Of a stretch of DNA of 64,000 nt, positions 1,690 through 63,500 are shown piece by piece; positions within the stretch are counted from its first letter, which is position 1, and every line of letters begins with the position of its first letter. The stretch is from positions 62,001 through 126,000 of the forward strand of contig RSEE01000127.1 in assembly GCA_003971905.1 (NCBI GenBank). The letters are read 5' to 3'. The notes beneath the pieces were generated by a model. The model did no database searches. It saw only the letters and a list, made by a program, of their open reading frames with translations, and was not told the DNA's origin. The translations under genes and the position numbers were made by a program. This stretch comes from Moniliella sp. 'wahieum'. Taxonomy: Eukaryota.

Positions 1690-2200
1690 CAGAGCGCGTA
1701 CCGGCGGGTGGTGCACGAGAGCATTGCGTCACCTTTGGAACACCGGGAGAAGGAGCTGCTTCGGCTGCTGGAACAAGCAGAATGCGACAAGAACGCCAAG
1801 TACCAGGAACGCACTCAAGAGCCGTTTTCCCACTGGTTTTCACGACGCGAAGAGGATACTACGGCACCAAGACAGCGGTCAAGATAGTATTTGCGCATTG
1901 GAAGGATTTGGTTACGGAGTCTCAATGGAAATGGTTCCTCGCTCGGATTGTCTATACCACGTTCATCCGTGTTCACAGTGACGCGCTTCCTAATAGGGTA
2001 TACGGGGCCGGATGGCGACCACGGAGGGACCTGATATCCTGACGATCCCCCTGGTTCCTTGACCTTGGTGGCGCTTCCAAGCAACCCCCGCAAGATGAAC
2101 GGTTCGGTTTAGACGCGTAGTAGCGTTCCGCCTGTCCCAGCCTTAAAGCTTAAGCTTGTCAATGATATGGATTCGAAGGAGAGACGAGACGAAGCCACAG
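1690..2200 (+). mobile_element. Relic 3' end of a restriction-like-endonuclease (RLE; CRE/Cnl1-type) non-LTR retrotransposon, copy 1
   Basis: Frameshifted peptide LLEQAECDKNAKYQE..FPLVFTTRRGYYGTKTAVKIVFAHWKDLV resembles the K..KY..F.PLV...G C-terminal RLE motif; second copy at ~16090-16610. Confidence 0.55.
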
Positions 2201-4211
2201 CTTTTAAAATGCGAGTATCGAATATTGATTCGACAGTGCATGTATCTCACAATAACTCCTGCGAACGAGATGGAAGAGATGGTGGTGAGAAATAAAGGAT
2301 GCGACAAAGAACGAGAGCTGTGGGAACATTACCGCCCACAGTCGCCCAAAAATTAGGCCACGGCCCAAGTAGCAATCCTTTTTATCGACCGGCCTTCTAT
2401 CCCACACATCACGTGCATTATAAACAGGCCATCAAAGATGTTTGGAATTGCGTAACAAACCGCTACAGTTAAGCCGCGGCACCCCGCACAGATCCAATTA
2501 CCGCTGGGGGGCAATGGGGGAGCGATCTCAGATTTCACTAGTAATCCTGAACTTCGAATGCTGACCGGTTACCGGTTACCTTCCCTAAGCCCCTAATCCG
2601 GTATCTCTCTCTTCAGGCGTTGTGTCCATGTCACATGATGAGATCTGAGAGATTCACCTTATACAGTGCATGTCTTTCGCCTCATAATACCCTTTTTTCC
2701 TTGGCGCAAATATTAAATCACGATATCCACACACAGACCACCAATCAGCTAGTCACTAGTCACTAACCTATGCACTCGTTCTAGAGGGAACATATGCTTT
2801 CCACCATTGAAATTGATACAATTGATGGAAGAGAAGGTTTGGGTGCGGTGGGGCGGGTCGATCCGTTGATTATAATTGACCGACGTGCGCTCAGTAACAT
2901 GTAACAGAAAGGCTTGCTGACACTGCCCTTCCCCGTTGTGCCTTATATACTCTTTACACGGTGCAGCTGTATAATCGCGTGGGAGTAACTCGCGTAAGTC
3001 TATAGCAAAACCGGTAACCTAGTAACAACTGTCGTATATCTGTGGAGGTAAAATGCCATCAGGTGTGTCAGGCTCAGGGCCGCATAGCAGAGGCAGAGCC
3101 ATGGTTCTCGCCTGGCCATGTAGTGTCTGTGTCAGTGGGGTTCAGGGACATGTGACGAGGAATGTTATAATGCGGAGAGAAAGGCAGGGGCGTTGTTGGG
3201 CTCTGAGACCCTGCTGAGAGGCTTGATGTCACCGGTCAAGCTCAAGTCTCAGAGGTCCGGTCTGAGTGAGGCCTTGAAGCTTGAAGCTTGAGGGCTTGAA
3301 GGACGCAGTTGAGGATCTGAAAGGTAGCCGGTGGGTTGGGGAAGAGGGGGGAAGTGAAGTGCTCAGGCTGTTCAAGCGCTCGCGCAAGCCACGATATGGC
3401 GATTTGTGGCGACTATTACAGTAATTGATTGTGGCTAGACTGCAATAATGACAACCGACGACAAAACAAACATGGACCGCCGTTCTCCACTAGTTACCGG
3501 GCATGCATAGCAACCCCCCTGGGGAAAGCCAGGATAGGTAGGTATACTAGCACAGTCAGGAGAGGAAAAGATGCGCGAGAGGCAGGCCCGTTTCGGCTCT
3601 CTTCCGCCTCCTTGTTTGCTTCACTGCGAGTGCATTCCTCTGATATCACGCTACTTCTCTCTGTCGTTCTCGTTGCCCATACGGTACCGGGCGTGGATTG
3701 AGGTTCCACGCCTGGGGGGCGCAAGGACGGAACAGAGCTACACACCTTTTGCACAGAAGTATTGCTGGATAGCAGACGTGACTTGTGCCCCGATAGCAGA
3801 TGCTGCGGTTGGGCAGCACGTGATATTAGGGACAATGCATTGATGGATGAGATCGATAGGATCTGAGATGATCGATGAGAGATCTGAGATAGGATGGGAG
3901 GCGCGTCCAGGCCCCAGGGCAGGGTGGGGGACGAAATTGACAACTCGAGCTAATTGGCTGTTACTTTTTTTTTGCTCGACGCGCCGCATTGAGCATGGCA
4001 GGCACGAGGCGTGTGTGCAGCCTGGCAGCGGCCGTGCTGCGTACCTCCGCCTACAGCGCACTGGGCCCGTGCCACGGGCTGGACGTGGTCTTAGATACCA
4101 GGCACAGAGGCCGCGGCCCAGGTCATAAAATCAACCGAGCGAATCAGCGCTCTCTTCTCCGTCCGTCCTGGCAACCACCTCCATCTCTTCCTCTCCCGCC
4201 GCCTCCTCGCC

Positions 4212-7437: not shown

Positions 7438-7471
7438 GGGTAGATGGTAGATGGTAGATGGTAGATGGTAG
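7438..7471. repeat. (GGTAGAT)n 7-bp tandem repeat, ~4.5 copies
   Basis: Read directly: ggtagatggtagatggtagatggtagatggtag. Confidence 0.9.
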
Positions 7472-14345: not shown

Positions 14346-14973
14346 CGCGTCGGGGGCAACTGTGTGACCCACGCTGGATTGATGGGGGGAGGTCTGGAGT
14401 GGTGGCACTGGGAAACAGGCAGACGCGGGCTCGGCAAGCTGAACGGCGTTCAGGTTCAGCGCGCAAGCGGGCCGCAGTTGCCGCGGCAGTCGCTTTGTGT
14501 CGGTCGCCAGTTTTTGCTGCAGGAGCTGTGTGGCGGGCAGGGCGGTGGGCGGAAATCAAAAACGCGACGTCACGCTGTCCCGCGTCACGGCATCACGTGC
14601 AACAATCGAACATTTGAATTTCACAGCGTGTGCGATCGCTGATCACCGATCTGCGCATCGGTGTACCAGCGCTCAGGCTGCGAAAGACAGTGAATGAGGA
14701 GCCACTGCAATACCCCCCCCCCAGGACTCACTGACCACACCACTCTTCTTTCCTGCGCCTCATGGAATTCAGACTGAAGGTCTCTTTCCAGCACACACGT
14801 ACAGACCTGAATCATCGATCAGATCCAGATCTCAGATCTCAGAGCAAAGCAACTGAGGCGTGCGGGGTTGCACCGCGGAATCGGCGGAATGATTGGATAG
14901 CACAGGGGCGCCACGTCCAAACTGCCCGGTTAGCTTGGGGAGCTTGCTTGCGATCCCCCATCTAACCTCGGCG

Positions 14974-18568: not shown

Positions 18569-19440
18569 CGGGGTGACTAGCGACTGAACGAATTCTACTT
18601 TGATCCGGTTTGGCCTATCTGTTTTGTCTGCCTTGCCATGTTTTTGGCACACGGACACGCACTCCCCAACGGCACCGCGCTCTTGGCACTCTCATGCTTC
18701 CTGTTTGAAGGGTTCTACAATTCTCACATCCCCAGTTCTGATTCTCAGCCCCTGATGGCAACTCCAGTCTCTCGTTTCCTATCAGCTTCAAGCCTCAGGC
18801 CTCAATCCAAACAAACTACGTAACATCCCCAACGCTACGCGATCAACCCAACGTCAATGCTCTCAGCGGTCTCAGTATGCTCAATTCAGCTGGGAGCTGG
18901 AGCATGGGAAGCATCAGTTTCATCCATGGGAAGCATCAGTTTCATCAGGCTGGTCGGGGGCGGGGAGAAGGGGTAGTTGGGCTCTCGTGACATGTGACAT
19001 GTGACGAAGGAGAGCTGTTACGTCGAGGGCTTATTAACACGCCACCCCCATCAAGATTGAAGGTTCATTCTTTCAGCATCGAGTCCAGGAAATAACATGC
19101 ATGAGGCCGGCCGACATGGTGCTGTGTACGTCCAAGTTACGCCCAAATATAGATAGGTGGTAACCATAGCATCACTCATCCGGCTACCATCGCTGTTCTT
19201 GAGCTACATACGCAAATCCAAGGGTGCTTAGAGAGACCATGCCAATCCGTATACGCTACGGTAGTTTTAGGACTGAGCAAGAAGCAGGCTAGGTGAGCCC
19301 ACCCGTCTTGCGGCGGGGGTCTGGTGCCGGGCACACCAAATGGAACATGAAGTCCCACAGAAGGAAGGGGAAGGCATATGGGCGAGGTAATGATGCGATC
19401 TCCAAGAGGATGGTGAAAGCGACGAGAATATTCGCCTGAT

Positions 19441-24541: not shown

Positions 24542-24824
24542 TCGTAACGGTGGCCCAGACACGACTCGCCACTCCCCGCTCACCGTGACCGAGTTGAACC
24601 GTCAACGTGCCAACACATCCTCTTCCCTATCCCTCATCCCTCCGACTGGCTTTTCCTATCTCCTCAGGCCTCACTAGTCACTCCTCACTCCTCACTTGTT
24701 GTTCCCAGATTACTCATACCGTCCCAGTGATTTTTCCTCCTTTCGATTGTCTGCATTCCCCACTCCCACCTCCCTCCCTGCTCTACCCTGAACCTCCGCA
24801 CACATCCCTTCTATCTGACTGGTG

Positions 24825-28132: not shown

Positions 28133-28264
28133 GTGTATGCGCACATACGAGCCGCTAAAGTAAACCTATGTATCGACATTACACACCCGTCTTGGGGACC
28201 TTGGGGCCACCATGCTAGTCTGCATTTTCGTAATATGCTCACGATTATGCCATCATATCGCACC

Positions 28265-28320
28265 CTCTCCTCTCCTCTCCTCTCCTCTCCTCTCCTCTCT
28301 CTCCGCTCCGCTCCGCTCCC
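28265..28320. repeat. (CTCTC)n/(CTCCG)n pentamer microsatellite downstream of the elongase
   Basis: Read directly. Confidence 0.85.
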
Positions 28321-40645: not shown

Positions 40646-40655
40646 TGTATATAAG
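40646..40655 (+). promoter_or_regulatory. TATA-like box of S53 copy A
   Basis: tgtatataag ~80 bp upstream of the ATG; kept in arm B (cttatataca, ~56049-56058). Confidence 0.5.
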
Positions 40656-40729
40656 CCTGGTTGGGCAACGCGCCCAACTTGCACTGTTCTGCCCCTGTCT
40701 GACCAGCTACCTTCGCAGCTCCTTCCGAC

Positions 40730-42648: not shown

Positions 42649-43088
42649 ACGGCTCTGTCAACTCTGATCCCTGAGACTGCCGCTGATGCTGGCGCCGCGC
42701 TTTGGGGGGTCTTCGATGCTCCTGATGATCATAGGGGTCTTCGATGTTCCTGACGACCATACGAGTCGTTACTTTCCTTTGCCTCTTATGGGTGTTGATT
42801 TCCGACACCAAAACTGGAGAGGCGTGCTTGCACATGCCTCCTCTTCTTTTGCACCCCCTCTCGCTCTGCTTACTACTCGAATAAGCGAGAGCACTGTTCT
42901 TTCTTGTAACTAATGCCACTAACGGATCCACGAGTTGTACCACATGGAACGCAGAGGGTATTCTCCGACCAGTAGTACTATATATAGGTGTGCCATCACA
43001 GGGGATCGGTCACAGTGAGCCTGGACGAGGTTAAGAAGAATCGAAGAGTGGTGTGGAGGTAGGGGAGACAGGACACCATAATCTACTT

Positions 43089-43172
43089 ATACTGTGTGCA
43101 TACGTGTGCATACTGTGTGCATACTCTGTGTGCATACTGTGTGCATACTCTGTGTGCATACTGTGTTCATAC
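43089..43172. repeat. Minisatellite (TGTGTGCATAC, 10-13 bp units), 7 units
   Basis: Read directly; 5 units in the inverted copy at 53542-53600. Confidence 0.9.
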
Positions 43173-43586
43173 GTTCATCTCGCTACTAAGCATACCCACT
43201 GCACTCTGCTCCAGCTGATGCCCACTCGAATCCCTCCCAGCTCGTCCCATTCTCCTTGTGGCCACCACCATTGATCCGATGACCAGGACCAGACTTTCCG
43301 TCTTTTGGTCACGGCATGCTATTTGGTCCTTTTTCCTCATCATCGTCGCCCCCTTACGCATCTAAGTCTTCGTCTTCGCTGCTGTCCGACAGGGACTGTT
43401 CTCTCCCTTGCTCATCCTCATCCAATCGCTGCGCAGAGCTTTCTGCTTCTTCGTCACTGGATGAGGGATAGTCCGATTGGCGGTCGCTTTCCCTTTCCCG
43501 TGCCGGCGCGGCTTGTCCCGATTGGTGGTGTTTCTTGAGGCATTTTCATTTCCCGCCGCATCCTTTCTTGGTGTGGCATTCTTCCC

Positions 43587-46500: not shown

Positions 46501-47764
46501 GCCGTTGAAAATACGTCCTTGGGCTTTCCAGCACTCGCTTCCTCAATGGCGTTGAGCTTGGAGAGGGTTGGAATAGGGTATTCTGGGTAAAGTTGGGCAA
46601 TTTTTAGGAGAGCCAAGCACTGCAGTTTGCAGTCTTCGGGCCAGGAAACTGTTAACTCGTTGAACCACGCTGCCTGTTCCTGATCCTGCGGTGTACCCCA
46701 TATATTGAATCGTTAGCAATGTAGACGGTAGGACTTGAATGACGTACCAGGATGTCCTTCAAAGCTGCGAACTCATCGGTATCCAATTCATCCTGGGACA
46801 TAGCTACCATTGGAAGGTTGGCGCTGTGGTTGGCACGTTTGTCCCGTGCCTTTCGCGAATGGCTCTGACGGGGGCCAGAGTCATCTCTTAAGGGGGCAGA
46901 AGAATCATTTGGCACCTTGCGCTGGGGACCCGCAATATACCCTAGCAACGTTCGAAGGGCTTTGTCCTTCTCAGTGTCATCCACGTCTTGGACTGGTGTG
47001 TGGATATCTTCATAATCTTCGTCTTCATCCATGTCATCGGTCGTGATGGGGTTATGGCTCTGACGGGGGGCAGAGTCATCTCTTAAGGGGGCCGAAGAAT
47101 CCTTTGGCACCTTCCGCTGGGGACCCGCAATATACCCTAGCAACATTTGAAGGGCTTCGTCCTTCTCAGTGTCATCCACGTCTTGGACTGGTATGTGGAT
47201 ATCTTCATAATCTTCCTCTTCATCCATGTCATCGGTCGTGATGGGGTTATGGCTCTGACGGGGGGCAGAGTCATCTCTTAAGGGGGCCGAAGAATCCTTT
47301 GGCACCTTCGGCTGGGGACCCGCAATATACCCTAGCAACGTTTGAAGGGCTTTGTCCTTCTCAGTGTCATGATTTGTTTGTCGGAGAGGGGAAGCGGAAC
47401 GGGCCAATTCTCCTGGAACGGACCGAGATGAAGAGGGGATCGCCTTCCGATTTCCGGTAGCCTGCCGGTTCCGATTGCGTCGAGAAGCCTCAGCACGTTT
47501 CTTTTGATGCTTGGAAGAAGTGGCATGCTTCATGGCGGCGCTGAATCGTTTTGGTTCTCCGCCGCAAAGGAGACATTTGTACCCAAACACCGTCCCACCG
47601 TAGAGGGCATGCAAATTGGGCGTAGCCATAACTTGCCATTCCGGTTGCCCTGGGCTGTTCTTCTCGCTTGTGGCAAGGGAGGCAGCGGATTCGAGGTCTT
47701 CGAAGTTTTGCAGAGTTTTCTCAGGCAGTGGAAAGTTAGAACGACACTCACGCCAGACCGGCAT
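43587..47764 (-). mobile_element. Large basidiomycete CACTA/CMC-like DDE transposase gene (frameshifted ORFs 46652-47764, 45897-46616, 44782-45909, 44344-44745, 43587-44222)
   Basis: N-terminal CxxC..H..H finger; motifs LWLHEP..VRPTVWF, PPNPYRAL..PLIMSLDDA, LLCVNADNLCHAALSS..YCHMC resemble, from memory, the PNPWR..LYCDD..ADNP..CR.C transposase-like family of rusts and agarics. Family assignment is not search-verified. Confidence 0.6.
46858..47370 (-). repeat. In-frame 195-bp (65-aa) tandem repeat, ~2.6 copies, within the transposase-like ORF
   Basis: DTEKDKALQTLLGYIAGPQPKVPKDSSAPLRDDSAPRQSHNPITTDDMDEEEDYEDIHIPVQDVD recurs; anchor cttctcagtgtcat ends at 47370, 47175 and 46980. Confidence 0.95.
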
Positions 47765-48649
47765 GATGTCCAATGGTCGACGTGCAAAGAGTCTTCGAGA
47801 GGTGGCCTGTGCTGGTTGGAGTGATGCTGGACGGTCGAAGCGCAGTAGCAGGTTCTGCTTGACACGTGCGCACCACGGTGCGCGTGAGAAAATACCGCGG
47901 AAGTCAAAAGTCAAATGCGGAACGCGCAAGGCGCGCGGAACTCGGGACTAAACGCGTCGCGAATAAGGACCGGCGCGGGTGCGCTGGTGCGGGTTTGCTC
48001 TCGAGGCTACAGAGACCCCTGAGGCCGGCATTAATAGTGCAAAGACATTATACCCGGCGATTCACGAGTTCAATTCCCCCCCAATCCCACCCTCTCTGAG
48101 ATCTGATCGATCTGATCGATCTGACCCCACATCCCAGATCACACACCACCGAACCTCCGCATTCCCACCATGACCATATACATTGCACGAACTCTTTTGG
48201 GACACAGCAGCAGTCTATAGCAAGCCCATCCCCGCCGCGTCGCAACACATCGTAACTAATGCCGTGACATTTTCTAAGCTCTTCCCGTTTTCGCTTGAGC
48301 ATCACTATCAATCGCCCCGCGCTTTTCCCGCGGAGGCATGCTTGATTCGTCGATGGCAATAAGGCGAGTGTACACAATAAAATGCGCCTCACATCTGCAC
48401 TTTGCTCGAGTCCATTGTCTCCCTAGACCATCTCATATGGCTCTATCGACCGCCATGACCCACCTCCGACGGGTTTGCAGGCTTTTGTGAGGAGAATCCA
48501 TCATTTCGTTCCATCAACAGTATGTCAGGCCCGCTGAATGGTAGGTACCCCCACCCCCCCACCCCTGCGCCCAGGTCCATTCGAATGCCATGCGGAGATG
48601 GAGAGGTCGAGGTGGAAGGAAAGCGGGATGCAGAGAAGCTTCACTGCGC

Positions 48650-51353
48650 TCACTTCTTCTTGTTGCGCTTCTTGCGATTCTTGTTCTTGCTTCCAGGCGT
48701 CTTGGGAGCGACAGTTTCCACCGCCCCACCCGATGCACTCTCAGTCTCAGGCGGAGGCGAACCGGTCTCCCACTCTTCCTCCTCCAACGTACCTGCGGAA
48801 GAGGCCGGACTGGCTGGCTCCGACACAGAGTTGGGATTGGTGGCGACGCTGCCTCTGATTGAGAGGAAGCGGAAGAATCACCGGATGAAGCAAGAGGTTC
48901 TTCAGCCTGAATGGAGGGAATCGGTTCCTCATGATTGCTCTGCAATGGGGTCTCTTCCACAGCAGGAGCCGATTCCGCAGCGGGAGCAGATTCCACAGCA
49001 GGGGCCGATCCCACCTTCGAAACTGACGCCCCAGTGGATTCGGGCTGACTTCCTCGGCGCTCCGGACGGGGGAAGGGTTGAGTCGTTTGGTCGACAGGAT
49101 GGGGCTCCGGCTCTGTATTGCTCGACACATCAGTCGGCTCGGGGGTGGGGACGGCGGTGTGCATCGTAATTTGCGGCAGCAACAGGAAGCGGAGAGGACA
49201 CTTGATCTTCACTCGGCTCGGGAGGCTTAGTGATGGGGTCTGCGGCCGCCACCGACGCAGGCGGGAGATCTTTCTCCTGCCCAACCTCCACTCCGGTCTC
49301 CACCCCAGGCTCCACCACGGTCTCTTCTCCAGCCTTCTTCCCAGTCCCATTCCCGGTCTTCTCACCTGAAACAACCTCGAATTCAGGCACATCTCCTTTG
49401 CTCTCCTCCATCTTGGAGAGAACAGGTGAGGCAGGGGTTGGGGCAGGGATAGTAGTAGGTGCTTCCGATGGCGCAACCGCTTCCTCCAGTTCCGAGCTTA
49501 GGGAAGGAGGGGTCGCAGTGACGGGCGAATAAAACTGGTTCGGGTTCGGGGCTGGCGAGTGGCACGCTCGGCTCGGTGCGATGATGAGCAGAGGAGACAG
49601 CATCTGACGTGGCAAGTAAGGACTCGGAACCGACAGTTTCAGATGTGGAGGGGTTCTCCACCTCAGATGAAGTCCCTTCGGTTTTCTCCTCGCCCGCATC
49701 AGACACTGCGACTGAAGAAGTAGGCGCCGAACTCTCCATTGGGGTTGCTGCCGAAGGCGCAACAGTGGCGTCACTCGTAGCATGAGCCTTAGGTTCCAAC
49801 GGTTCAGACTCGGTCGGGACCACAGAGGCCAATGGGGATGGAGAGGGCTCAAACGTCTCAGAGGCCAGAGCTGGTGGTTGGCCGGGGAAAGGGTCAATGC
49901 AGCGGGGGTGCGCTCGACTGAAGGGGAAGCGGTCGCAAGTCCATGCTTGATCGGGGCAGCAGCCTCTTCCGTTTCCTTGGCCAGCATAGTGGCCACCGCG
50001 GCCTCGGCCCCACCCTCGGCCTGGGCAGCGCGCAGCATCTCAGCATCATGTTCAGTTTTGCGCGCATGCATGTCTTGCATATGTTGCTCGTCCAGACCCA
50101 CCAACTCTTCTTCCACGTCATCCTCGGGCTGAATAGCCCAGGCATCTGCACCTTGTCTCGACGAGGTGGGCGACACGTTCGCCTGTCCCACCCTGAGGGG
50201 CGAAGAGGAGGCCACAGCATCCATGCTTCCCAACTGCGGCTCCGCTGCGGTCTGAGGCACTGGAGGGGAGCGGGAACAGGAGAGAGGCAGTGGAAGCTGG
50301 AGGAGAAGTGCCACTTGGCTCATTAACCGTTGTTGCGTTCTCTTGCTCTTTGAGCGCACGCGCTTTGTTACGAGGAAGACCCAAAGACAACTTTTCTGAT
50401 CCTGGTAGGCCACCATCAGTGATACCAAGAGGCGAGAGAGGTGTGACATCCAAAGCGGAGGCAGCAGCTGGGGAGGCGGCAGAGTTGGCTGACGGGGCGG
50501 CTGCTTCAGCGTCAGCTGCTGCTTCCGCTTGTGCTTCTGCTGCTTCTGCTGGCGCATTTGCTGAAGTTACAGTTGTAGACGAGGGGTAAATGGGCGGTTC
50601 CTCCGCAATGCCCAACAGGGATCGCAGCACACGGTTCTCCTCAAGTAAGTGCTGCTCATGGACTTGGCTCTCAAGAGCTGCGTCGGCAGCATCAGCAGCA
50701 GGGTCGTGCCACTTGCCGAAATAACCGCCGGAACCATAGAATGAGGGCATGCGAAGCGCTGGGGCTGGAGTTGTGACCAGAGGCAGACGTTGAAGGGTCG
50801 AGTGGGGCGTCGGACAAGGCATCGGGATCTTCGCCCTCAGCAGCGCGAAGCGCACGACGAACAAGAGAGCCGAGGTGTTCGAGCGTGGCAGTACTTGCAG
50901 AGCTGGCCGTCAAGACCGCCTGGGCCTGGTGGTTGTAGCTTTGGCTGCTGAGCTGGCGCTCGTAGTGGGAGGTGAGGTTGAGCACGTGGGACTGGGTTGC
51001 GTGGCAAAAGGCGCGGAACTTGGCCATGACCTGTTCCAGGGTATGGTGGTAGTCGCGAGCAAGGAGCGTGAGCTGGCGGTTCTCATACGACAGGGCATTG
51101 TTGTCGCGCACGAGGCTGACATGGAGGCGCTCCAGCTCGCTGCTATACACCTCGTTGGTGACATCGACGTTGAAGCGGCGCAGGGCAAAGCCAGTGCGGG
51201 CATGGTGGAGCTGGCCCTTGAGGTCGTCGGCCTGGCGCTGGAGGACGGCCGCGCGTCGCGATTGGACTTGAGCTGGGCACTGAGCTCGCCAAGCAGGGCC
51301 CAGAGCTGGGAGACTTCGTCGCCAGCGTCGCCGTCGACGGGCACCATGGACAT
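48650..51353 (-). CDS. Conserved basidiomycete coiled-coil protein (possibly SIKE/FGFR1OP2-like) with a long acidic disordered tail
   Basis: MSMVPVDGDAGDEVSQLWALLGELSAQLKSNR..RTGFALRRFNVDVTNEVYSSELERL..ENRQLTLLARDYHHTLEQVMAKFR; Ala/Glu/Pro tail ending SKNKNRKKRNKKK*; frameshifted. Confidence 0.7.
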
Positions 51354-52382: not shown

Positions 52383-52398
52383 ACACCAATGTGAGTTG

Positions 52399-53366
52399 AA
52401 GGTGCCAAATGATTGTTCGCCCCCCTCAAGAGATGACTTTGCCCCCCGTCAGAACCATTCGCGAATGGCGCGAGACAGACGTGCCACCCACAGCGCCAAC
52501 CTTCCAATCAGCGCCAACCTTCCAATGGCATCTGCGTCCCAGCATGAATTGGATACCGATGACTTCGGACCTTTGAAGGACATCCTGGTACGTCATTCAA
52601 GTCCTACCGTCTACATTGCTAACGATTCAATATGGGGTACCGCAGGATCAGGAACAGGCAGCGTGGTTCAACGAGTTAACAGTTTCCTGGCCCGAAGACT
52701 GCAAACTGCAGTGCTTGGCTCTCCTAAAAATTGCCCAACTTTACCCAGAATACCCTATTCCAACCCTCTCCAAGCTCAACGCCATTGAGGAAGCGAGTGC
52801 TGGAAAGCCCAAGGACGTATTTCAACGGCTGATGGCCGTGCAAAGCAGGTGTCTACTAGGAGCCTTGTGGACATTCTTCCGCTAATGTACGAATCAAGAG
52901 AGCTGCGGGAGGCTATGAGTGACATGCCAGTCGTTCGCGACCTGTGCGAGAACATCAGTGACGGCTCACGCTACCGGACAGTTCGACAACCTTCAATACG
53001 TCTGAGCGACGAGTCACTTCTTTGGCTCCATATGAGCCAGCGTTATGGTCTAAAAGAGCTGGGGCTGCCCTGAGGCTCGTGAGGCCGACCGTTTGGTTTT
53101 GGAAAGAGGATACTGAAGGGACTCGAGATGCCATGGCGATCATTGAGCAACTATATACGACTTGACCGGCCCCTGGCTACTGGTACCGAGTCTGATCCTA
53201 TTAGTTCGACGAGGACGGGCAAAGAGCGCGTCGTGCTACTGAGCACCCTTGGGTCCTTAGGCGAAACGGCACGTAGGGTTAAACTTGTCGACACTGAAAA
53301 GGGAAAGCGATTATGCCGCCGAATCCTTGCCGAGTATTGTCTCCCGATCCCGAACGCATCAAGGTT
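52399..53366 (+). pseudogene. Truncated copy of the transposase-like gene (no 5' end, catalytic core deleted)
   Basis: Matches 45975-46919 inverted (..LLKIAQLYPEYPIPTLSKLNAIEE..RVKLVDTE) and stops just before the LDDA motif. Confidence 0.85.
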
Positions 53367-54042
53367 AGATGATAAAGAATGAAAGGACCAAACAACATGC
53401 TGCGACCAAAAGACGGAAGGACTAGTCCTGGTGATCGGGTCAATGGTGGTGGCCACAAGAAGAATGGGACGAGCTGGGAGGGATTCGAGTGGGCATCAGC
53501 TGGAGCAGAGTGCAGTGGGTATGCTTAGTAGCGAGATGAACGTATGAACACAGTATGCACACAGTATGCACACAAGTATGCACACAGTATCCACACAGTA
53601 TAAGTAGATTATGGTGTCCGTCTCCCCTACCTCCACACCACTCTTCGATTCTCTCTTAACCTCGTCCAGACTCACTGTGGCCGATCCCGTGTGATGGCCA
53701 CACCTATATAGTCCAACTGGTCGGAGAATACCCTCCGTGTTCCATGTGGTACAACTCATGGAGATAGTAGTAGTGGCATTAGTTACAAAAAATATACCCT
53801 CGCTTATTAGTCGGAGTAAGCGGAGGCAAGAGGGGTGTGCAAAAAGAGTAGGCATGTGCAAGCACACGCCTCTCCAGTTTTGGTGTCGGAACAACAAAAC
53901 CCATAAGAAGGCAAAGGTGAGTAACGACTCGTATGGTCGTCAGGAACATCGAAGACCCCTATGATCATCAGGAGCATCGAAGACCCCAAAGCGCGGCGCC
54001 AGCATCAGCGGCTGTCTCAGGGATCAGAGTTGACAGAGCCGT

Positions 54043-55972
54043 TTAGAGATTCTGCCAAGCCTGGAAGAGGGGAGTGCCGAGACCACTGGCCGGGTCCCAG
54101 CCCTGCTTGGCAGGGAAGTAGAGAGTGTTATCTTCAAAGCATCCACCCGTCTTGCCCGTAGTAAGGTCGGTTAGGGCCGAAGGGTTGTCGTACAGCTTGG
54201 AGTGGAACCAACCCACGCGGCCCTTACCGTTTTGCTCGCGGTAGTTGTTCAGCAAGGCAATGTGAGCTGCCACAATGGGCGCGGCAGCGCTGGTACCGCC
54301 TACGGTCGTGTCTTGCCCCGATACGGTGATCTGCACGTTGAGACCAAGGGCAGCCAAGTCGGGGAAGGCGCGGCCATTGCGGTTGTACTTGCCGCTGTCT
54401 AGGTTGCCAATGCTGTTGACATACGACTTGACTTGGCTCGCTTGGTACGAAGGGGCGTCAAAGATGTTGGAGAAGCCAGCACCACTGTGTTCATTTGAGT
54501 CAGAAATTAGCACAGCAGCTTGGTAACTAAGAGGAAGGGAATAACAGTGAACGTACCTCCAGAAACCGCTCTCGTTGCTTCCATCGACCGGGACCTCGGG
54601 GCTCGTGTTCTGGGTTGCACCTACAGACAAGATGTAAGGGCAGCCAGAGGGGAAGGTGGGGTTGAATGAAGAGTCACACGTCTCTCCCGAAGATGCCTGT
54701 GTTCATGAGAGCGATCCAGACGAGAGAGTCAGTTAGTACATAAATCAAAGGACGTGTGTTGGTGATCTCGGAAGAAGGATGGGTGGGAGATACGAGATGA
54801 ATATTAGGAAATGGGACAAACCTGGTTGGAGTTGACACCGTTGTCGCCTGAGGCAACCACAACCGTAGTACCTCCCGCCGTCAACTTCTGAGCAGCGTTG
54901 CAAAGCGAATGGGCATCACTGGGAGAAGTTTGACTCATCGTCACCGTACGAGATAGTAATCACACCGGGCTTGGTGCTACAACAGAAAGTCAGTTGGATA
55001 GAACAGCAAAGAATGGAAAATCAATTACGCACCTCTGGCCGAGAACGTAGTCAAAACTGTCGACAAAGAAGTCGTCATTGGAAGGGTTGCTGCTGCCGTA
55101 GGAGAGGAATGTGGTGTGGAGGGGGGCACTGATGCCACTAACCATTTCCACATCGAGCATGGACTCGGTACCAGGGTTGCTGGGGTCATTCGTGGCACCA
55201 CCCGCAGTTCGATGGTGACCTTGTATGAACCATGGTCCGTCTGGGATTGCATGAACGAGGTGAGGTCGCTCTGCGAAACGTACTCGCCAACATAGCCCAT
55301 GACGAGGGTGTCAACAGTCCCGCTCTGGGGGCTGGGTGTGTAGCCGGAAGACTGATACTGGGACTTGATGCAGCTGATAGAGATGGCGTCGTCGTTGCAG
55401 CCACCGGCACTCGCAGTGCGCTCTTCGATCATCTTTTGCTTCAGGATGGGAACGGAGCGGCGAATATTGTTGAACGACGTAAAGGGGTGAACGTTGAGGA
55501 CAGCATCTTGCAGCTCATCCGGCACAGTGTATTGACTAGTACGCAAGATTTTGTTGCCCGTGACACTGTGAGTGTATTGGGACAGATTGGCTGACCAGCT
55601 GCGTTGGCTTCTTCGGCCGAGTGAGTGACGGTGATCTTGTCCCCCCACTTGTTGATTTTAATGTCTTTTCCTCCAAACTTGGTCAAGTGAGCCTTGACCG
55701 ACTGGACGTGGGCATCCGAGGCACGAGTGTAGCCCTGGAGCTCTTCATCCGAGAGCCACTTGCTGTCCGACTTGGCAATCTCAGCCATCTTGTTGTCCAG
55801 CGCCGCCTGGCCTGCGGCCGGGAGCTGCACCGAGTAGGTCACCTCAGTAGAAGGGTCGACTGGGGTACCGACGGAGTAAACATGGGGGATGCTTAGGCGC
55901 AACAATGCGCGCCTGGGCGCCAGCGGCGGCGGCCAGAACGAGCACGGAAGTGAGGAGGTTCTTGTTGAACAT
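54043..55972 (-). CDS. Secreted S53 sedolisin / tripeptidyl-peptidase-like protease, copy B
   Basis: MFNKNLLTSVLVLAAAAGAQA signal peptide; GTESMLDVE, ASGDNG, GGTSAAAP, GWDPASGLGTPLFQAWQNL*; same intron layout as copy A. Confidence 0.92.
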
Positions 55973-58194
55973 GTCGGAAGGAGCTGCGAAGGTAGCGGGT
56001 CAGGCAGGGGCTGTGAACAGTGCATGCTCAGCGCGTTTCCCGACCAGGCTTATATACATACCATCACCACTGACGCCAACGGCGATGCAACACATGATCA
56101 TCGATATCCTCAGCCTCCTCCGCACCCCTCCCCCCTGCCGACAACCTCGATAAATGATCGCTTTCAGGCTGGTGATCGCGTGATCTAAGCATGGCTTGTA
56201 ACATGATATGCTTTCGGATCGCATGCCACAGACATGTGTTACGACGCGAAGTGGCTGATGCCAGTGACGTACTGATGGCGCTGATAGGTATGGCCTGTTG
56301 ACAGGTAAGTACTAAGTACTCTCAGGTTCTTGGCACCAACGTAAAAGGTTTACTAGTTACTACGTTTATTAGTACTCACGCGTCACGAACAGCACGATCT
56401 CATTTCTGTACTCTGCCATACCACATGGTATAGACATGTGGTTTAGACAGGGCCGACAACATCTGCGGAGGTATTTATATTATCCCTTTTCGGAGCTTTG
56501 GGTTAAACCGGTTACATGTTACAGGTTACCGGTTACTGCAGATACGATAGGCACTGTATTAGGAGGCCCTGATGGGCCTGATGCATGATATACTTCAGCC
56601 TGAGACCTGAGCTCAGGCGTGATGCGTGATGCAGATCGAAGTGGCTTGAAGCTTGAGCTTGAGAGGCTAAGCGCTGAAGCTAGCGCGCTCAAGAGCCTCC
56701 GCCTGTGAGCATATGAGGCCGGAGGTATGTCTGTGAGGCCTGAGTATATGAGCGATGAATATGAGCGCATTACACCGGTTTGCTCGGACCCCTGTCTCTC
56801 CTCTATACCAGGCCCGAGACTCAGTCTCAGTCTCAGGATCTCAGGACCACAGGGCTATACCACATGTAACAGTACTCATTGTTCGCTTTAAGATGTCGAT
56901 AATCGACAAAGAAGAGATAAGACCGGTGTATATAACCCGGAGCTTTTGTAACATGCGTATAACATGTTAACATGTCGATTAAAAGGTTTATAACTTCCTC
57001 ATTATTCGATCATCGCAATGTATAACGGCGCTTGGAGAGAGATTCTCGATAGCACGTAACGAGAAGGGAGGAGACGATTGATCTATTGATGATCATGAGA
57101 TCCGCGAGAGGACGCAATATGCAGGACGCAAAACATATGATGTCGGTGAATGACATTGGCTGAATCATGAATCATGAATTGATGATCGACAATGGCAGTT
57201 CTTCGCAACGGAACAAGTGAAGCCGAACAGCGACCAGCACTGTGGCCTTGCTTGCCCATGCCACGTCTCGCTGCATAGGCGTGGGGCCCTGGCATCGAGC
57301 AGGTGGAGGCGTGTGCCCAAAATGATCGAGATGCATCAACGTTGTTCAGCCGAGCGACGCTTGACGCGTGATCGCTGATCAATGATCCTGACGTTGATCT
57401 TGTTGATCTCTCCCGGGCATTGAGCCAGTGTCCCACAGCACGATGAATGGACGTCACGTCCAATCGATGAGCGGCTCAGTGGCTCGGTGCAGCACCAGCC
57501 TTCGGGGGTGTCTCAGGGGGTTCCTTGGTCTGTTAGATGCACATGGCCATGCAGCATCCTTACGAACCACTGACATGTGGCCATGTGATGTGTGATGCAT
57601 GTGAGTGATGCTATTGTGGCTTGGTTAAGATCGAAAGAACAGGTAAAACCGGTTACCGGTATTCGATGCACTTGTGAAGCTCTTGAAGCTTGAAGCTTAA
57701 CGCGTACTGATGCGCTGATGCATGATGTGTATGATAGCGCCTATCCATTATCGATCATCGGCCTCATCGGATACCACCTGCTTTCCCCGCCACCTTTTCG
57801 TGCCAAGGCCTCTCCCAACGCGCTCATCTGCGACGACGCAGCCGCTCCGTCACCTTGCTTTGCCAAGCATTCTGTTGAAAACCACACGGGTACTACTGAG
57901 GGCTGATGAATCCATCTGTTTTGAGAGCTGAAAAAGGGTCGAAAGCTATAGGATGGCGTCTGTGTTCCGCCGACATAGTGGCCAGTAGACCAGGTAGACC
58001 CTGGTAGACCAGAGGCTAATGTGCAAACAGTGATTGCTCGAGACCTCTGATATTGATGATCGACAATCGATAATCGATAAGCCAATCGAGCTAATCAATC
58101 GTTCACATGTCGATTATGCACCTGAGGCCCTGAGTCGGAGGCTTGAGGGCCTTACCAATGGAATATGGGTAACCAGTATAGCTGGTGAAAACTT

Positions 58195-60568
58195 TATTGT
58201 TGGGACCCGTGGTCCCGTACTTAGGCCAAGGTGCCTCATCACCCTTCACCCCTGATTTGTCCTCCCAAGCCTCCACGTGTATACTCAGGCTTGTTTGAAC
58301 CCCTGTCCCTAGGTGGCACAAGGCTTAGACCTCAACCACCACCATCGCGATTTGCATTGCTCTACATCTCCAGAGGTTCTCACCCAATCCTTGGGTTCCT
58401 CCGGTCTTACATTTATAGCCGGTGTTTTACTCCTGAGGTGCTGGGCGATGGAAGAGAACCACATCGCAAAGGGGCCAGGGATGTCTTCGTGTGTTGATGC
58501 CATATTATAGGCTACACAGCCAGTCGCGTCCAAGGCGAAATTGTATTTAGCACAAAGTCCAAGGCAATAATTTTGAGTGGCACTAATTTCTAACCACGTG
58601 AGACGCCTACAGCCTTTTTGCAGTCCAAGGTACAAATGCCTTGGTGCTCTCCAAGGTAAATCTGGCCCTGCCAAAGGCCGTCATATCAACCCCAAATTGC
58701 CTTCGTCGTCTCCAAGTCCACTTCTTCTTCAGTTTCCTCAAGTACAAATGGCCTACATTCACGGGAAGGCTAGTACTACGGCCTTCGAATGTGGCAACGC
58801 TCACTGGAAGCCATACTGCATACCGGCAGCGAGGTTCGTTAGAATGAATCAAATGCATTTCGGGCGATGGTCGACAAGAGCCCACGAAGAAAGGATAGAA
58901 ACGTGAGATTCAGGATGAGCAAGTTCGTGTACCGCAGTTTGGGCATTCGGGTTCTAAGTGCGAAGTACGAGGGGAGTTTGCCTCGGTTGGCCTCGCAATT
59001 CTCTTGTCCATCATGAGCACATCGATCCATACCCTAATGAACATTTGGCGGTTAGGAGCGGAGCCTTCCCTCGTCTCAAATGTACGCATGCACTTGGCGC
59101 TGAAGTGATTGGACCTTTGCTTGCACCGGTTTTCCTGACAGAAACTGTAAAAGGCTTAGCCAGTGAAATGAGTCAATCTCCAAGCAAGGCAGAGTCGGGG
59201 GAGAATGGAAAAGATGTTTAGTAACGAGTAACATGGTTAGTAACGAGTAAGATGGTTATACACACCGCTTCCTGTACTAATGCCTGTTCCAGCGCCACCA
59301 ACTCATTTGCTGCGTCCCAGTGGGGAAGTCCGGACCAGGGCTTCTTTGCTACTCTCCCCAGGTGGATTCGAGGGACACGGTTTGATCGTTTTGACTCGCT
59401 TATATGTTGACTGTGATCATCCGGCTCCCAGTCTGTAGACCAGGTTCGCCTCGGTTTCATCGGCTGCCACGCTGGTGTCCCAGCGTGTTATTGTCCCTGT
59501 GCTCTGCACTCTCCTGTGTGACTCACTGGCCCTGTGCCTAGTCCGGCCTCCGATATAGATGCCTCTGTACCCAGACTCAACTCTGGCTCTAATAATCCAT
59601 CACCTTCTCCTCATCCTTCTGCCCGTCTGGCTCCCTATATGCCAACATTATACACGCCTCTGCCTCACTCCTTAGGCCTTACCATTCAGTGGATCTTGTT
59701 AGTTTCGTTTGTTGCTAACGCGTGGTTCAAGGGAGTGGAAGTGGGTGATTAGGATAACTTGACTGCTCTCGGGTCTTCTTATATGGAGCAGAAAGATCCG
59801 GTGTCTTCTTTGAGAGGGGATCAAGACAGTGGCGTGTCGCAATGACATATCGGGATGGGCCGGTTTCAGGATGGTTAATGGTACAACAGGGCCTCAGATT
59901 GGGCAGTGGGTTGTAGGGACGAATCGGCACCATATATTGGCGAACAAGTCTATACGATCCATGTTCCATCACAAAGAGCCGGTGGGACTCGAGCGGGGAT
60001 CGGGACAACTGGAGAGGCCTCTCGGCACATAGAATAACGGACTGCTTGTGTGGTAAGGTTACGCACAGGCACCGTCCTAGGCAGTAGTAAAACGTGCCTG
60101 AAGCCATTCGTACTCAGGGGCGGGGATAAAGGCAGTGGGGACAAGCACTGACCAAAATTGGATTGAAGGGGGAGGGGGGAAACAGTGATTGGAGCTGAGA
60201 CCAGAAAAGCTTCGACTGAAAGTTCCATGGATTGGATTCTGCAAAGCCAAAACACTGAGTGGCGGACAATCAGGCCCGAAAGGTGTGGGAATCAGAAAGG
60301 CGAGGAGGCGGAGAGAGAGATAAGCAAGTAAGAGGAGGAGTTGCCTGTACCGTGTATGGATCAGATTGGCGGAAGTGGGGAAGCCAATTGTAACAGTTGG
60401 GGCTAAGAGTGAGAGACAAAAGAGCCTGTGAGTGACAGGGAGAATGTCAAGGCTCTGTTGGTGGGAGGGAACAAGAGGCATCGGGCAGTCGGGAAGAGAA
60501 GCAACAGGGAGGGGAAGGGCGAAATACAGAGGATGTGGCGTTGGAAATTAGAGCGATGACCTTCGGCG
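58195..60568 (-). mobile_element. Heavily decayed LINE-like retrotransposon relic
   Basis: Pieces recur at 585-820, 36905-38350 and 52084-52382. Broken minus-strand peptide RGLLSTIARNAFDSF..MQYG..QNYCL resembles the post-RT region of LINE ORF2; AATAAA at its 3' end (~58193-58198). No intact RT motif seen. Confidence 0.4.
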
Positions 60569-63500
60569 CACTATGGCGAAGTCGTGTGCATCCCACTGAG
60601 AACCCCACCTCACATCCTACTACCATGACCGCTCCTTCTTCAAAGGGCTCGCCCCACCTTTTGGTCCATATATGTTTGGCTGCTACCACCTGCCCGACAA
60701 GCAGTGCCGCCACGACTACCACACCACAACTGAGAGCGATTCCAGATGCAAAAATTGCCAAGAAGGCACCAAGAACGCACGCCACTGCTTTGGGCTTCGA
60801 CGTCCTACATGGGTCATCTTCTCTTCACCAAGCTTGGACCGCGAACGAGTTTGAAGCGGGGGGATCTGGTCCCACTTGCTTGAGATTGTAGTTGTCTTCT
60901 TTGTTTCGTCCTTGTTTGGTCTGATTCGATGAATTGATGTCGTTTCCCTTTGAAATCTGCCATAGGACGCCATAGTAGGAAGCCATAGCAGTAGAAAATG
61001 GTAGGAGCTACCGCAGACAATATGGTCCCACAGTCGTCTTTCATTTTGATCTATGGGTCCGGGCAGTCGGCAGGCAGCTGCTCCCATTTCACCCAGCGTA
61101 GCCGTGGGCTTCAGCGGGGCGCACTGCAGGGGATGTACAGAGATGGGATGTCGAAATGTGTGTAGATGGCACGGTCACAAGCGGCTGTGTTGGTCGGTAG
61201 GATGCAAGCTGAGTTGCAGATCCTCTGTGGCGGTCGGATACACTGGCCTCTCAGATGGTCTCTGTCTCCTTTTCCACCCCAATCCAGCAACAGTGCCAAA
61301 CTAGAGGAAGCAATCTGCCCATTCATCTTCCCCACAGGGTAGTGCCACTATGTCCCCCCGGGGAGTCAGGCGACACACGCTGAGGTTCTGTTGCGGGGTA
61401 GGCTATCAAAGGTTATGGACGAGGAAGCCAGACGCCGCATCTTTGGTTACTAGGATATGTACCAGAAAACGTCATGCTCTCGCAACGCTCACCCAGCTTA
61501 TGGCTCCTTGCCTCACTCTGGCAGGCTTCAAGTCTCGGCCTCAGGTTTCCTCCGTGTATTTGTGGGCGCGTGGACATGTGAACCATCTCCCGTTGAGAGA
61601 CTCCAGTCAGGTAAAAGGTAATCCTTGCCAGTGGCCAAACATATCTTCTTGCTCGCCGTCTTGGGAGCAGTATCCTCGCGTCGTCCGTCATACGCGTCAT
61701 AAACCAATGGGACGAATGGTTCTTTGGGTGCGTCCCGTACTACTCGGCGTCTTGTCGCATTCTGCTTTTTGTTTCACCACCAGTCGAAGCAGCTCCTATG
61801 ATTCAACGATCATCAACATGAAATACATCTCGATCTGAGACTGTTCGGCATGTGCACCTGTCCCGTGGTCCAACGTCTTAGCAGTCTCTCAATGCATAGG
61901 ACCCTCTCGCTCTTCAAGATTAACTGATCTTTCATGATGCATTTCCGGTGGGCGACGGTAACCGGTAAGGCCAGGCCTAACGCCTAACGCCTAAGGCCTC
62001 ATATGTCGCTGGCAACCGGAACTGGCTACAGATTTCCGCGACTCGCGCACTCTGGATTAGTTACCGTCGCTCCTCGTTACCCTCCTTTCTATTCTCCCTA
62101 TTGTATTCAAGGCGGAGTATATAGCGGCAGGCGCCAGCGCGTCAGTAGCTTACAAGAAGCCATCCCTGACTGTTTCCACCCTGCACAGGGTTGAGTTTTA
62201 ATGAAGACAAGGTCTATAGAGATGGAGAAAGAGGGAGAAGGTGATGGATCTATTGCAAAAGCGAGGAGCCCGCCGCTGGGGGCACAGAACGTAGGGGAGA
62301 TCGGATAGAACAACGCGATGCGTGGTGTGATCAGCTGCATGAATGATGGCGCTGACAGTAGCTTCCTGTTCTCTCTTTTCTGTTCTCTGCCTGCTTCTGG
62401 CGCTTTTTATCCTTGTCATGCATGTCAACAGTACTGTTTTTGCCATGTTTTCAAACGACAACAATAACTTGGTTACGTAGGTACTAGTCCGCAGTCAGTG
62501 CATTCTATGCTAGGTGCACGAAAGGTTTACCCGGTAGTACGTTTGACGATTCTGATGGAAACAAGTTGCATGGGAAGTATCTCTATATTGCTCACGCGCT
62601 CACACCGATCTCTTGGGCCTTACTCGGGGTTGCTGCTTCTCTTCGCCTAGCGAAGTACGGAATACGTCCATCTCAAATGCTGTGGGAAGCCAGGCCGGGA
62701 TCGGCCATACGATCAGTCACCAGTTCACCCATGGGCCACCGGGAGGTGTGATGGTCACCAGTGCGGTCACTGTCACCGATCATTTGGTACTTAGATCTTA
62801 GAGCTTAGCCTACACGCTTAGTCCGTTTTACGTTTAGTACGTCGAACTTCAAGCTTCAAGCTCCAAGCGAGCTCCTATTAGGGATGCATGTGATGTGTGA
62901 GTGTGACTACTGGCTTAGTCACTGTGCATGTGACTTGTCGCCGCGTCTGCCGCCCAGATCAGCCAGCGCTCAGCTAATAGTCTCGTATGGCATCGCTAAT
63001 AACCTGCTCACCGAGTAGCGACCGGCGACCGGCGGACACGCTACTAATATTCAGTCTGAATACCCCGTACTCGGAACTCGGTGTCCCTCGGCACGTTTCG
63101 TTCTCTCGCCGTGCTCGGCGATCAGGCGCTTCAGGCTGAGTAAGCTAGTAACGGACTGCCCAGCCCCGGGCCTCAGGGCCTGCTTGAAGCATGCGGAACC
63201 CGTACAGCGAACTTCGGGCTTTCGCATACCGTGGCTTCCGTGTAACGTACACCGTTTCCCGGCTATCGTTTTTACCCCCACTTACCGGCTTCCGTTCTGT
63301 ACTAGTCATTGGAGTAACAAACTTTCGGCCTTAATAGGCCGTACTGGCAGTTACCCAGTTACCGGTTACCGGTTACCGAAAAAATGGATGCGGGACGGAC
63401 GCAAGTACTTATGTATCTCAATGTAAACACTGGAAACATGTAAACGTTAAACGTACACATATGGTGTACGTGGCTCTGTAAAAACCGAGCGGGTATAAGT

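Follow-up and report, generated by a model that had tools for sequence, protein, structure and literature searches.

How does the non-coding DNA of one fungal locus come to carry dozens of short tandem arrays that share a period of 7 nt and a palindromic design while their cores take many different sequences? The question is raised by a 64,000-nucleotide stretch of the genome of Moniliella sp. 'wahieum' (contig RSEE01000127.1 of assembly GCA_003971905.1, positions 62,001 to 126,000), which we call the window. A first-pass annotation of this stretch described the arrays as a TNA trinucleotide (N being any base) joined to a 4-bp palindrome and proposed that they are insertion and excision footprints. 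Every count below comes from this one 64-kb window; the comparison material consists of an inverted duplication inside the window and of 121 metagenome loci used as a control. The repeats prove to be real, and their cores mostly match their own flanking bases. We tentatively read them as the scars of a hairpin-forming transposable element.

Arrays were detected with Tandem Repeats Finder, which lists dozens of period-7 arrays, and the background was taken from 100 block-wise dinucleotide shuffles of the window. All arrays named in the first-pass annotation were found, within 0-2 bases of the positions it gave, including ACCGGT+T at 2564, AAGCTT+G at 3273, 26376 and 27688, AACGTT+C at 25516, ATGCAT+C at 25969 and 40417, ACGCGT+T at 30438 and AGTACT+A at 56306. 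Those at 25328 and 61975 proved degenerate, in agreement with it. The excess over shuffled sequence that it called for is present within the window, and among perfect repeats of at least two copies it takes the following form.

Period 5: 73 repeats, shuffle mean 57.0.
Period 6: 49 repeats, shuffle mean 14.9.
Period 7: 57 repeats, shuffle mean 4.03 +/- 2.17 (maximum 9).
Period 8: 10 repeats, shuffle mean 1.09.
Period 9: 4 repeats, shuffle mean 0.32.

Perfect repeats of at least three copies number 10 at period 7, 3 at period 6 and 0 at period 8. These counts confirm that the period-7 repeats are real and far above chance. Their units are mostly of one kind: 38 of the 57 consist of a 6-bp palindrome plus one base, a form taken by 10.4% of all primitive 7-mers, and 36 of these 38 read A-NNNN-T, in other words TNA joined to a 4-bp palindrome (the two others lie at 8846 and 57161). 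Hexamer palindromes of the form A....T are the sole enriched class in the window (362 vs 203 expected from composition), the other classes being C....G (262 vs 314), G....C (248 vs 314) and T....A (187 vs 203). We counted 14 distinct 4-bp cores, in keeping with the "at least 12" reported before. One further array, (GGTAGAT)4.7 at 7439-7471, has a perfect period of 7 with neither TNA nor palindrome and stands outside this grammar.

The elementary unit is a 12-mer, TNAxy-y'x'-TNAxy, in which a 5-nt direct repeat encloses a spacer of 2 nt, the reverse complement of xy. Counted on both strands, this 12-mer has 133 matches at 67 loci, against a shuffle mean of 0.35 matches (maximum 3 in the 100 shuffles). 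When TNA is swapped for another centre in the same pattern, ANT gives 3 matches at 1 locus, CNG none and GNC 2 matches at 2 loci. Of the 178 TNAxy-NN-TNAxy matches, 133 have the reverse complement of xy as their spacer, as would be expected of the palindromic (P) nucleotides left by hairpin opening. Two TNA trinucleotides with the same N around a 4-bp palindrome occur 113 times vs 2.9 in shuffles, and just 6 of these 113 occurrences are without the flank extension. Among maximal period-7 runs, those of 10 nt (n=661) or of 11 nt (n=215) hold the 4-bp palindrome in no preferred register; runs of 12 nt (n=107) hold it in two mirror registers, with 20 runs each vs 6.7 expected, and 25 of the 30 A..T-palindromic 12-nt runs are TNAxy-y'x'-TNAxy or its reverse complement. 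On a grid of matched lengths of 3-10 and spacers of 1-4, palindromic spacers are enriched solely in the cell of five matched and two spacer nucleotides (36 of 107 runs vs 13.4 expected). The arrays also begin and end in two fixed phases, with 26 of 83 starts on T and 22 on y', and 25 of 83 ends on y and 22 on A. The first-pass annotation was right that plain slippage is inadequate, as neither slippage nor exact tandem duplication can yield the TNAxy-y'x'-TNAxy 12-mer. In the metagenome control (121 loci, 689,536 bases), 12 canonical loci with cores other than AGCT were found vs 55 in the 64-kb window, so the TNA 12-mer signature is not a general property of DNA. As to the control itself, perfect (AAGCTTG)4 occurs in at least 121 metagenome contigs of many organisms and varied habitats (G+C 0.26-0.67) without other cores, and since the multi-core grammar is missing there, these loci serve only as a negative control.

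The sequence of each core is set, in most cases, by the bases next to it. We defined a chain as cores lying 7 nt apart with the same N, joined as ab-TNA-(core-TNA)k-xy, which gave 85 independent chains. In 67 of the 85, each core is the palindromised left (b'a'ab) or right (xyy'x') flanking dinucleotide, with left-derived cores coming first and right-derived cores following to their right. This flank rule is obeyed by 58 of 71 one-core chains, where about 12.5% would be expected by chance, by 3 of 4 two-core chains and by 9 of the 14 chains that have more than one core; in the obeying two-core chains, the left core fits the left flank and the right core fits the right flank. Matches to the left flank only and to the right flank only are nearly equal in number (30 vs 35), and both mirror forms occur. 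Among one-core chains, 46 have one matching flank and 12 have two, with the 10-nt core intact, which rules out that the 12-mers are decayed 14-mers. Unlike A..T cores adjoin in phase 12 times at a distance of 7, vs 0-4 times at each other distance from 1 to 13, and 9 of these 12 neighbours share the linker base N. This in-phase switching of cores, a feature behind what the first-pass annotation had called a grammar, is explained by the flank rule. The class in which N is complemented between the two TNA is not enriched (7 vs 14 for the two other bases). Representative units and arrays are as follows.

2564-2580, unstranded: one-core chain gg TTA CCGG TTA cc; both flanks fit the core.
2639-2650, plus strand: minimal canonical 12-mer TGAGA-TC-TGAGA.
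3273-3291, unstranded: (AAGCTTG) array, ct TGA AGCT TGA AGCT TGA gg; the cores fit the left flank.
14826-14843, unstranded: (AGATCTC) array.
18987-19005, unstranded: (ACATGTG) array; each flank is one base off the rule.
24662-24682, unstranded: two-core chain cc TCA GGCC TCA CTAG TCA ct; each core derives from the flank on its own side.
25265-25288, unstranded: two-core chain ga TTA TCGA TTA GCGC TTA gc; the flank rule is obeyed.
25516-25554, unstranded: (AACGTTC)5.6 with four cores; both flanks fit.
25952-25995, unstranded: composite gg TCA (CCGG TCA)2 (TGCA TCA)3 tg; the clearest case, expected from repeated events on one ancestral GG-TCA-TG.
26188-26210, unstranded: (ACATGTC)3.3.
26376-26414, unstranded: (AAGCTTG)5.6; the rule is not obeyed, the left flank being one base off and the right carrying a 1-nt insertion.
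27688-27719, unstranded: (AAGCTTG)4.6, in an intron of an ELO (GNS1/SUR4) gene.
63358-63378, unstranded: (ACCGGTT)3, ag TTA CCGG TTA CCGG TTA cc; the cores fit the right flank.

The chains are depleted from likely coding DNA. Stop-free stretches of at least 150 codons, which we used as a coding proxy, make up 55% of the window and hold 12 of the 85 chains. Outside these long open frames, 73 chains stand against 1642 TNA sites (4.4%), and the array in the ELO-family gene lies within an intron. Arrays of 3-6 copies appear commoner than random re-hitting at 4.4% would give, and slippage therefore probably lengthens arrays after their birth.

The window contains a large inverted segmental duplication, with arms at ~36950-46918 and 52399-59940 and one sedolisin (pro-kumamolisin/S8-S53) gene in each arm. 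The sedolisin exons are 99-100% identical between the arms, whereas the upstream non-coding DNA (38420-40700 vs 58166-56015) is far more diverged, with many indels; this contrast suggests that the coding part has undergone gene conversion or that the non-coding part turns over fast. About 2.6 kb at 43346-45979 is present only in the left arm, with no target duplication at its borders.

Comparison of the arms yields two clean pairs of filled and empty sites, 56350 vs 40245 and 38471 vs 58129. Each pair differs by exactly 7 nt, and the short allele in both is the single ab-TNA-xy predicted for an empty site, the pair by itself not telling gain from loss. At 56350 the short allele, GTTTACTA, is without a palindrome, so that the 7-nt difference there is no pure duplication of an already palindromic site, the outcome that the first-pass annotation had named as fatal to its proposal. 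Its expected spike of +7 indels between the paralogous arms was seen in part: 7-nt gaps exist, but among the 25 well-flanked gaps of 3 nt or more they number only 4, a weak spike. The sites compared between the arms are listed here.

56350-56362, plus strand: filled site gt-TTACT-AG-TTACT-a; the other arm (~40240-40250, opposite strand) has GTTTACTA once.
38471-38484, unstranded: filled site cc TCA GGCC TCA gg; the other arm (~58129) has a single CC-TCA-GG and is 7 nt shorter.
38911-38943, unstranded: (AAGCTTC)4.7; copy number differs in the other arm (57682-57698).
40220-40231, plus strand: TGAGA-TC-TGAGA; the other arm (56376-56387) has the same TGA...TGA frame with the core CGCG instead of GATC.
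40417-40443, unstranded: (ATGCATC)3.9; absent from the other arm.

Rarer variants bear on the size of the duplicated target. The 7-mer NN-TNA-NN is repeated with a 1-nt spacer (+8) at 7 loci, where the spacer is of P type in 6 (controls 2, 6 and 2 loci), and with a 2-nt spacer (+9) at 9 loci, where it is of P type in 7 (controls 2, 3 and 0). In +11 variants a full 7-nt TNA-centred repeat occurs at 2 loci, one of which, caTGAtg-CATG-caTGAtg, carries 2 + 2 P nucleotides, two from each flank. A direct repeat of the target is therefore seen as 5 nt at the 67 canonical loci and as the full 7 nt in the +8, +9 and +11 variants, of which the following are examples.

25207-25223, unstranded: +9 variant tgTGAtg-CA-tgTGAtg, a 7-nt direct repeat with 2 P nucleotides.
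26227-26249, unstranded: +8 variant, the 7-mer cgTAAcc repeated with a 1-nt P-type spacer G.
26597-26614, unstranded: +11 variant caTGAtg-CATG-caTGAtg.
39499-39518, unstranded: +9 variant ccTCAtc-GA-ccTCAtc-GA.
48100-48124, unstranded: period-9 array in which tcTGAtc-GA is repeated (+9 variant).

These variants repeat the whole 7-mer, and NN-TNA-NN is symmetric about TNA, as expected for a dimeric enzyme, whereas TNA-NN is asymmetric; for both reasons, the duplicated target is more likely 7 bp than 5 bp. The canonical +7 unit then follows from one rule, by which, of the two 4-nt overhangs that the hairpins yield, one survives and one is trimmed away. The geometry first proposed, a 5-nt TNA-NN repeat plus 2 P nucleotides with a net gain of 7, matches the minimal units exactly, but a 5-bp duplication is less parsimonious than one of 7 bp.

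The geometry and the statistics described so far are observations, from which we infer hairpins, a 7-bp duplication, a rule for hairpin opening and the existence of an element. Our preferred explanation, to which we give somewhat less than an even chance, is that a hairpin-forming cut-and-paste element with a 7-bp TNA-centred duplication left the repeats as footprints when it inserted and excised, and that slippage later stretched them. A transposase would duplicate a 7-bp target centred on T-N-A (ab-TNA-xy), and excision would leave hairpin-sealed flanks through the nick-hairpin chemistry of RAG/Transib, hAT and MULE. The hairpins would be flush on both flanks and would be opened by host enzymes 2 nt from the tip, so that each flank would end in a self-complementary 3' overhang of 4 nt (xyy'x' on one side, b'a'ab on the opposite side). 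During end joining, one overhang would be ligated to the recessed end of the other flank and the second overhang would be clipped. In this way ab-TNA-xy would become ab-TNA-xy-y'x'-TNA-xy or its mirror image, with a net gain of 7 bp and a new 4-bp palindrome; less often, both target copies would be retained with 1-2 P nucleotides (+8, +9, +11). New hits on a TNA inside an array or at its edge, together with ordinary replication slippage, would lengthen the arrays, and a hit at the edge would produce an in-phase core switch with the same N. Selection would purge the +7 frameshifts from exons. Palindromic junction bases and a retained target duplication are textbook signs that a hairpin-forming transposase has excised, or that V(D)J joining has taken place, and Artemis prefers to open hairpins 2 nt from the tip. 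In the available part of one account, hAT, Transib, RAG and MULE cleave via hairpins on flanking DNA, and these hairpins may be opened by enzymes of the host such as Artemis before end joining leaves footprints (PMC5499845). The mechanism of the first-pass annotation is plausible, with the element as a putative agent.

A number of points weigh against this explanation, beginning with the narrow base of a single window. The flank rule is broken by 18 of the 85 chains, including 5 of the 14 with at least two cores; by our reading, several of the 18 are one base off or carry a 1-nt insertion. Cores made of A and T only are rare (3 of 89 vs a background of 19.9%), a bias that the model does not predict. 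The +7 spike between the arms is weak, and gain and loss cannot be told apart there without an outgroup. The +8 excess is modest (7 loci vs 6 for the CNG control), and within the window neither exact 7-bp duplications without P nucleotides (5 loci vs 4-9 in controls) nor the one-P +7 class (4 loci vs 0-6 in controls) is enriched, so the repair outcome would need unusual uniformity. An identical 14-mer, TGACATGCATGACA, stands at two unrelated places, 26665-26678 and 62414-62427, with a 5-nt repeat and 2+2 P nucleotides; it may be a double-P footprint of a 5-nt target or an unrelated shared protein-binding motif. The element itself is missing from the window: intact elements flanked by TNANN duplications, which the first-pass annotation proposed to look for, were not found in the 64 kb, exact and relaxed scans of the window gave no terminal-inverted-repeat pair with a fitting 3-10-bp duplication, and no occupied 5- or 7-bp TNA site was seen there beyond array-to-array artefacts. 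No transposase family was matched among the 120 stop-free stretches of at least 130 aa (Pfam, E<=0.001). An open frame in the 2.6-kb insert of the left arm has a weak tnp2 match (E=0.0034, below the Pfam cut-off) and is without homologues. By our own derivation from the Hermes chemistry, a nick of the hAT type, one base inside the flank, would lead to a product other than the one observed, so the element family would have to make flush hairpins, and we know of no described combination of flush hairpins with a 7-bp duplication.

Closest to the preferred explanation is one with the same kind of agent and the geometry first proposed, in which a Transib/RAG-like enzyme with flush hairpins makes a 5-bp duplication (TNA-NN, or NN-TNA on the other strand), one flank hairpin being opened 2 nt off the tip to give 2 P nucleotides and the other at the tip. 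A 5-nt repeat with 2 P nucleotides is just what the canonical 12-mer consists of, and TGACA-TG-CA-TGACA at 26665 and 62414 has P nucleotides on both sides and left flanks unfit for a 7-bp duplication. We nevertheless consider this version unlikely. With T first and A third, a 5-bp target lacks the symmetry that suits a dimeric enzyme, and the two mirror classes would need two registers per TNA; opening would always have to fall at +2 in one hairpin and at the tip in its partner, while the no-P (period 5), one-P and three-P classes are not enriched, and it is left unexplained why the +8 and +9 variants also repeat the two bases that precede TNA. As far as the available parts of the literature go, Transib, RAG and RAG-like elements do make 5-bp duplications with flank hairpins (PMC1131882; 10.1101/2023.08.20.553239), but among fungi Transib was detected only in soybean rust (PMC1131882). 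A different agent, a non-mobile nuclease such as a domesticated hairpin-forming transposase or a site-loose endonuclease, might break TNA sites with the same staggered geometry and leave end-joining scars. Such an enzyme would suit the lack of any element or occupied site in the window, the very high density (4.4% of TNA sites outside long open frames) and the near-deterministic outcome; yet a 5-7-nt direct repeat needs a staggered cut filled in at both ends, P nucleotides need sealed hairpins, and no enzyme is known to us that achieves the two by itself unless an element undergoes strand transfer. No candidate gene was found among the 120 stop-free stretches searched against Pfam in the window. 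We think a nuclease of this kind distinctly improbable.

We rate about as low the possibility that the units arise from an error of repair or replication synthesis, in which a 3' end at ...TNAxy would copy two bases by snap-back or template switch and realign 5 nt back, much as in synthesis-dependent microhomology-mediated end joining. No element is required here, and other indels between the arms look like templated inverted copies (a 7-nt insert at 40499 resembles a fold-back copy of the preceding GCGAT). The strict TNA (67 loci vs 0-2 for other centres), the inverted part of always exactly 2 nt and the 7-nt direct repeats of the +8 and +9 variants are all unexplained, however, and continued copying on the complementary strand would give the complement N, whose class is not enriched (7 vs 14). 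That the arrays are ordinary microsatellites, pre-existing palindromic 7-mers grown by replication slippage with the help of array hairpins, is very unlikely. Slippage or an exact tandem duplication would produce runs no shorter than 14 nt, while the commonest class is the 12-mer, and decay of 14-mers cannot give 46 one-sided and 12 two-sided one-core chains with an intact 10-nt core; nor does slippage explain TNA, the flank-matching cores, the in-phase switches of all four core bases or the short allele of one filled/empty pair without any palindrome. Slippage probably does act on existing arrays, as copy number differs between the arms (38911 vs 57682, for example) and arrays of 3-6 copies are commoner than re-hitting predicts. 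An assembly or sequencing artefact, or a set of selected protein-binding sites, is scarcely credible: the structure depends on local flanking bases, several arrays are common to both paralogous arms, arrays are depleted from open frames, and 14 cores fit neither a read-error mode nor a single binding site.

Several narrower candidates were set aside. One idea was that the arrays supply stop codons in every frame, T-N-A reading as a stop on either strand or its complement and a 7-nt period shifting the frame; it comes with no mechanism and leaves the flank-derived cores unexplained. Tc1/mariner-type footprints are element-specific and add 5 bp, a 3-bp TNA duplication with hairpins would yield TNATN'A, and hAT5 or hAT7 with a nick offset by one base gives a mismatched product. 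Hairpin opening 4-5 nt from the tip was rejected on the complement-N class, which is not enriched, and an ordinary slippage microsatellite as the origin on the minimal unit, which is a 12-mer, and on the array ends, which lie in two fixed phases rather than at arbitrary places.

If the repeats are indeed excision footprints of a hairpin-forming element, the window would be an unusually dense, clean natural archive of repair after transposon excision, with roughly one scar in every 400 bp of non-coding DNA, from which the position of hairpin opening (2 nt from the tip) and the end-joining rule of a filamentous fungus could be read directly in genome sequence. The birth of one class of palindromic microsatellites from non-repetitive DNA would be explained, and the pattern would point to an element or enzyme not yet recognised, whose 7-bp target is centred on TNA. 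NN-TNA-xy-y'x'-TNA-xy offers a simple search pattern for the same process in other genomes. A bolder idea, which we regard as doubtful, is that the scars come not from an ordinary transposon family but from a still-undescribed germ-line DNA-breaking system peculiar to this lineage of fungi, either a domesticated hairpin-forming transposase or a very active TNA-centred 7-bp-target element without inverted repeats. About 1 in 20 non-coding TNA sites would then have been hit, 4-bp palindromes and heptamer microsatellites would have been made de novo, and promoters and introns would turn over fast.

In other respects the window is ordinary fungal nuclear DNA with a G+C content of ~55%. Its Pfam families include an arrestin-like protein, an actin-related protein, a septin, a protein kinase, a Vps51/Exo84-like protein, a SWIB domain, ribosomal protein L6, a Zn2Cys6 regulator, an ELO elongase, an alcohol dehydrogenase and the two sedolisin copies, and the genes matched by Pfam all carry short introns. 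Repeats of other kinds are also present. Near the 3' end of the ELO-domain match (27719-28129) lies an 18-bp repeat of 5.3 copies (28028-28122), with a (CCTCT)11 tract just downstream (28264-28319). Downstream of both sedolisin copies we found, in mirror image, an 11-bp tandem array (ATACTGTGTGC)n at 43089-43172 and 53542-53601 and a 28-bp two-copy repeat at 42706-42761 and 53932-53987; the copy number of these mirror-image repeats differs between the arms. A 195-bp tandem repeat of 2.6 copies (46859-47370, 96% identity) lies inside a minus-strand open frame without a Pfam family (46655-47947). The central region between the arms (48.5-51.5 kb) holds several long overlapping open frames without a Pfam family, the longest of which (49133-50566, minus strand) has no homologue of near length in a large protein collection.

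The footprints resemble several known systems in part. V(D)J coding joints and the products of RAG/Transib, hAT and MULE likewise carry short palindromic additions templated by the last flank bases. The hAT excision footprints of Ac/Ds and Hermes retain the target duplication with small palindromic changes at the junction and a net gain of ~6-8 bp. The hAT duplication is 8 bp (5-7 in some lineages) of the form nTnnnnAn, with T and A one base in from the ends, and the first nick falls one base into the flank; by our own derivation, this offset nick would give TNAx-y'x', whereas the window shows TNAxy-y'x'. A hAT identity was therefore rejected, as the units are A-NNNN-T + N rather than period-8 T....A and none of the 120 stretches of the window has a hAT domain. 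PIF/Harbinger elements target TTA/TAA, which is of the T-N-A type, and their excision is mostly precise. Their duplication is 3 bp in the available part of PMC12730594, whereas the corresponding 3-bp direct repeat, TNATNA, is not enriched in the window (90 vs 76 for ANT).

In RAG/Transib-type systems, too, hairpin flanks are opened a few nucleotides off the tip by host enzymes and then end-joined, according to the portions of two sources available (PMC5499845; 10.1101/2023.08.20.553239). In contrast to V(D)J/RAG joints, the scars of the window are germ-line and fixed, number 85 chains in 64 kb, are near-invariant (2 P nucleotides on one side) and are tied to a TNA target. Transib and RAG duplicate 5 bp in the texts as available, while the window variants show 7-nt repeats; the 5-nt repeat fits this comparison, the 7-nt variant repeats and the asymmetry do not, and no such element or protein was found in the window. 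Fungal DNA transposons with 7-bp duplications are described in the accessible part of PMC12730594, namely Kyakuja (KDZ group, Agaricomycotina) and hAT7 (Pucciniales), both from Basidiomycota, whereas a feature search with the actin-related protein of the window pointed to Ascomycota. Their 7-bp duplication is like the one proposed here, and no KDZ or hAT protein was found in the window. Kyakuja has the termini 5'-CA..TG-3' and lacks inverted repeats in that account (PMC12730594), so the terminal-repeat scans of the window would miss an element of this kind. A TNA preference is not shown for Kyakuja, hAT7, Transib or RAG in the portions of the descriptions that we compared.

Palindromic microsatellite-like repeats are also described, in the available text of PMC7218506, from the mitochondria of Fusarium, where they lie in organelle non-coding DNA, whereas the window is nuclear. 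Bacterial STRR-type heptamer repeats, which have a family consensus, long inverted arms and prokaryote spacers, were rejected as a match, the window having fungal nuclear genes and 14 cores set by their flanks. Full-text literature searches returned no report of such repeats, or of footprints accumulating into palindromic heptamer microsatellites; PMC12699852 and PMC7218506 have no bearing on the phenomenon. Hairpin excision footprints and P nucleotides are known; palindromic heptamer arrays with cores that match their own flanks appear to be what is new here.

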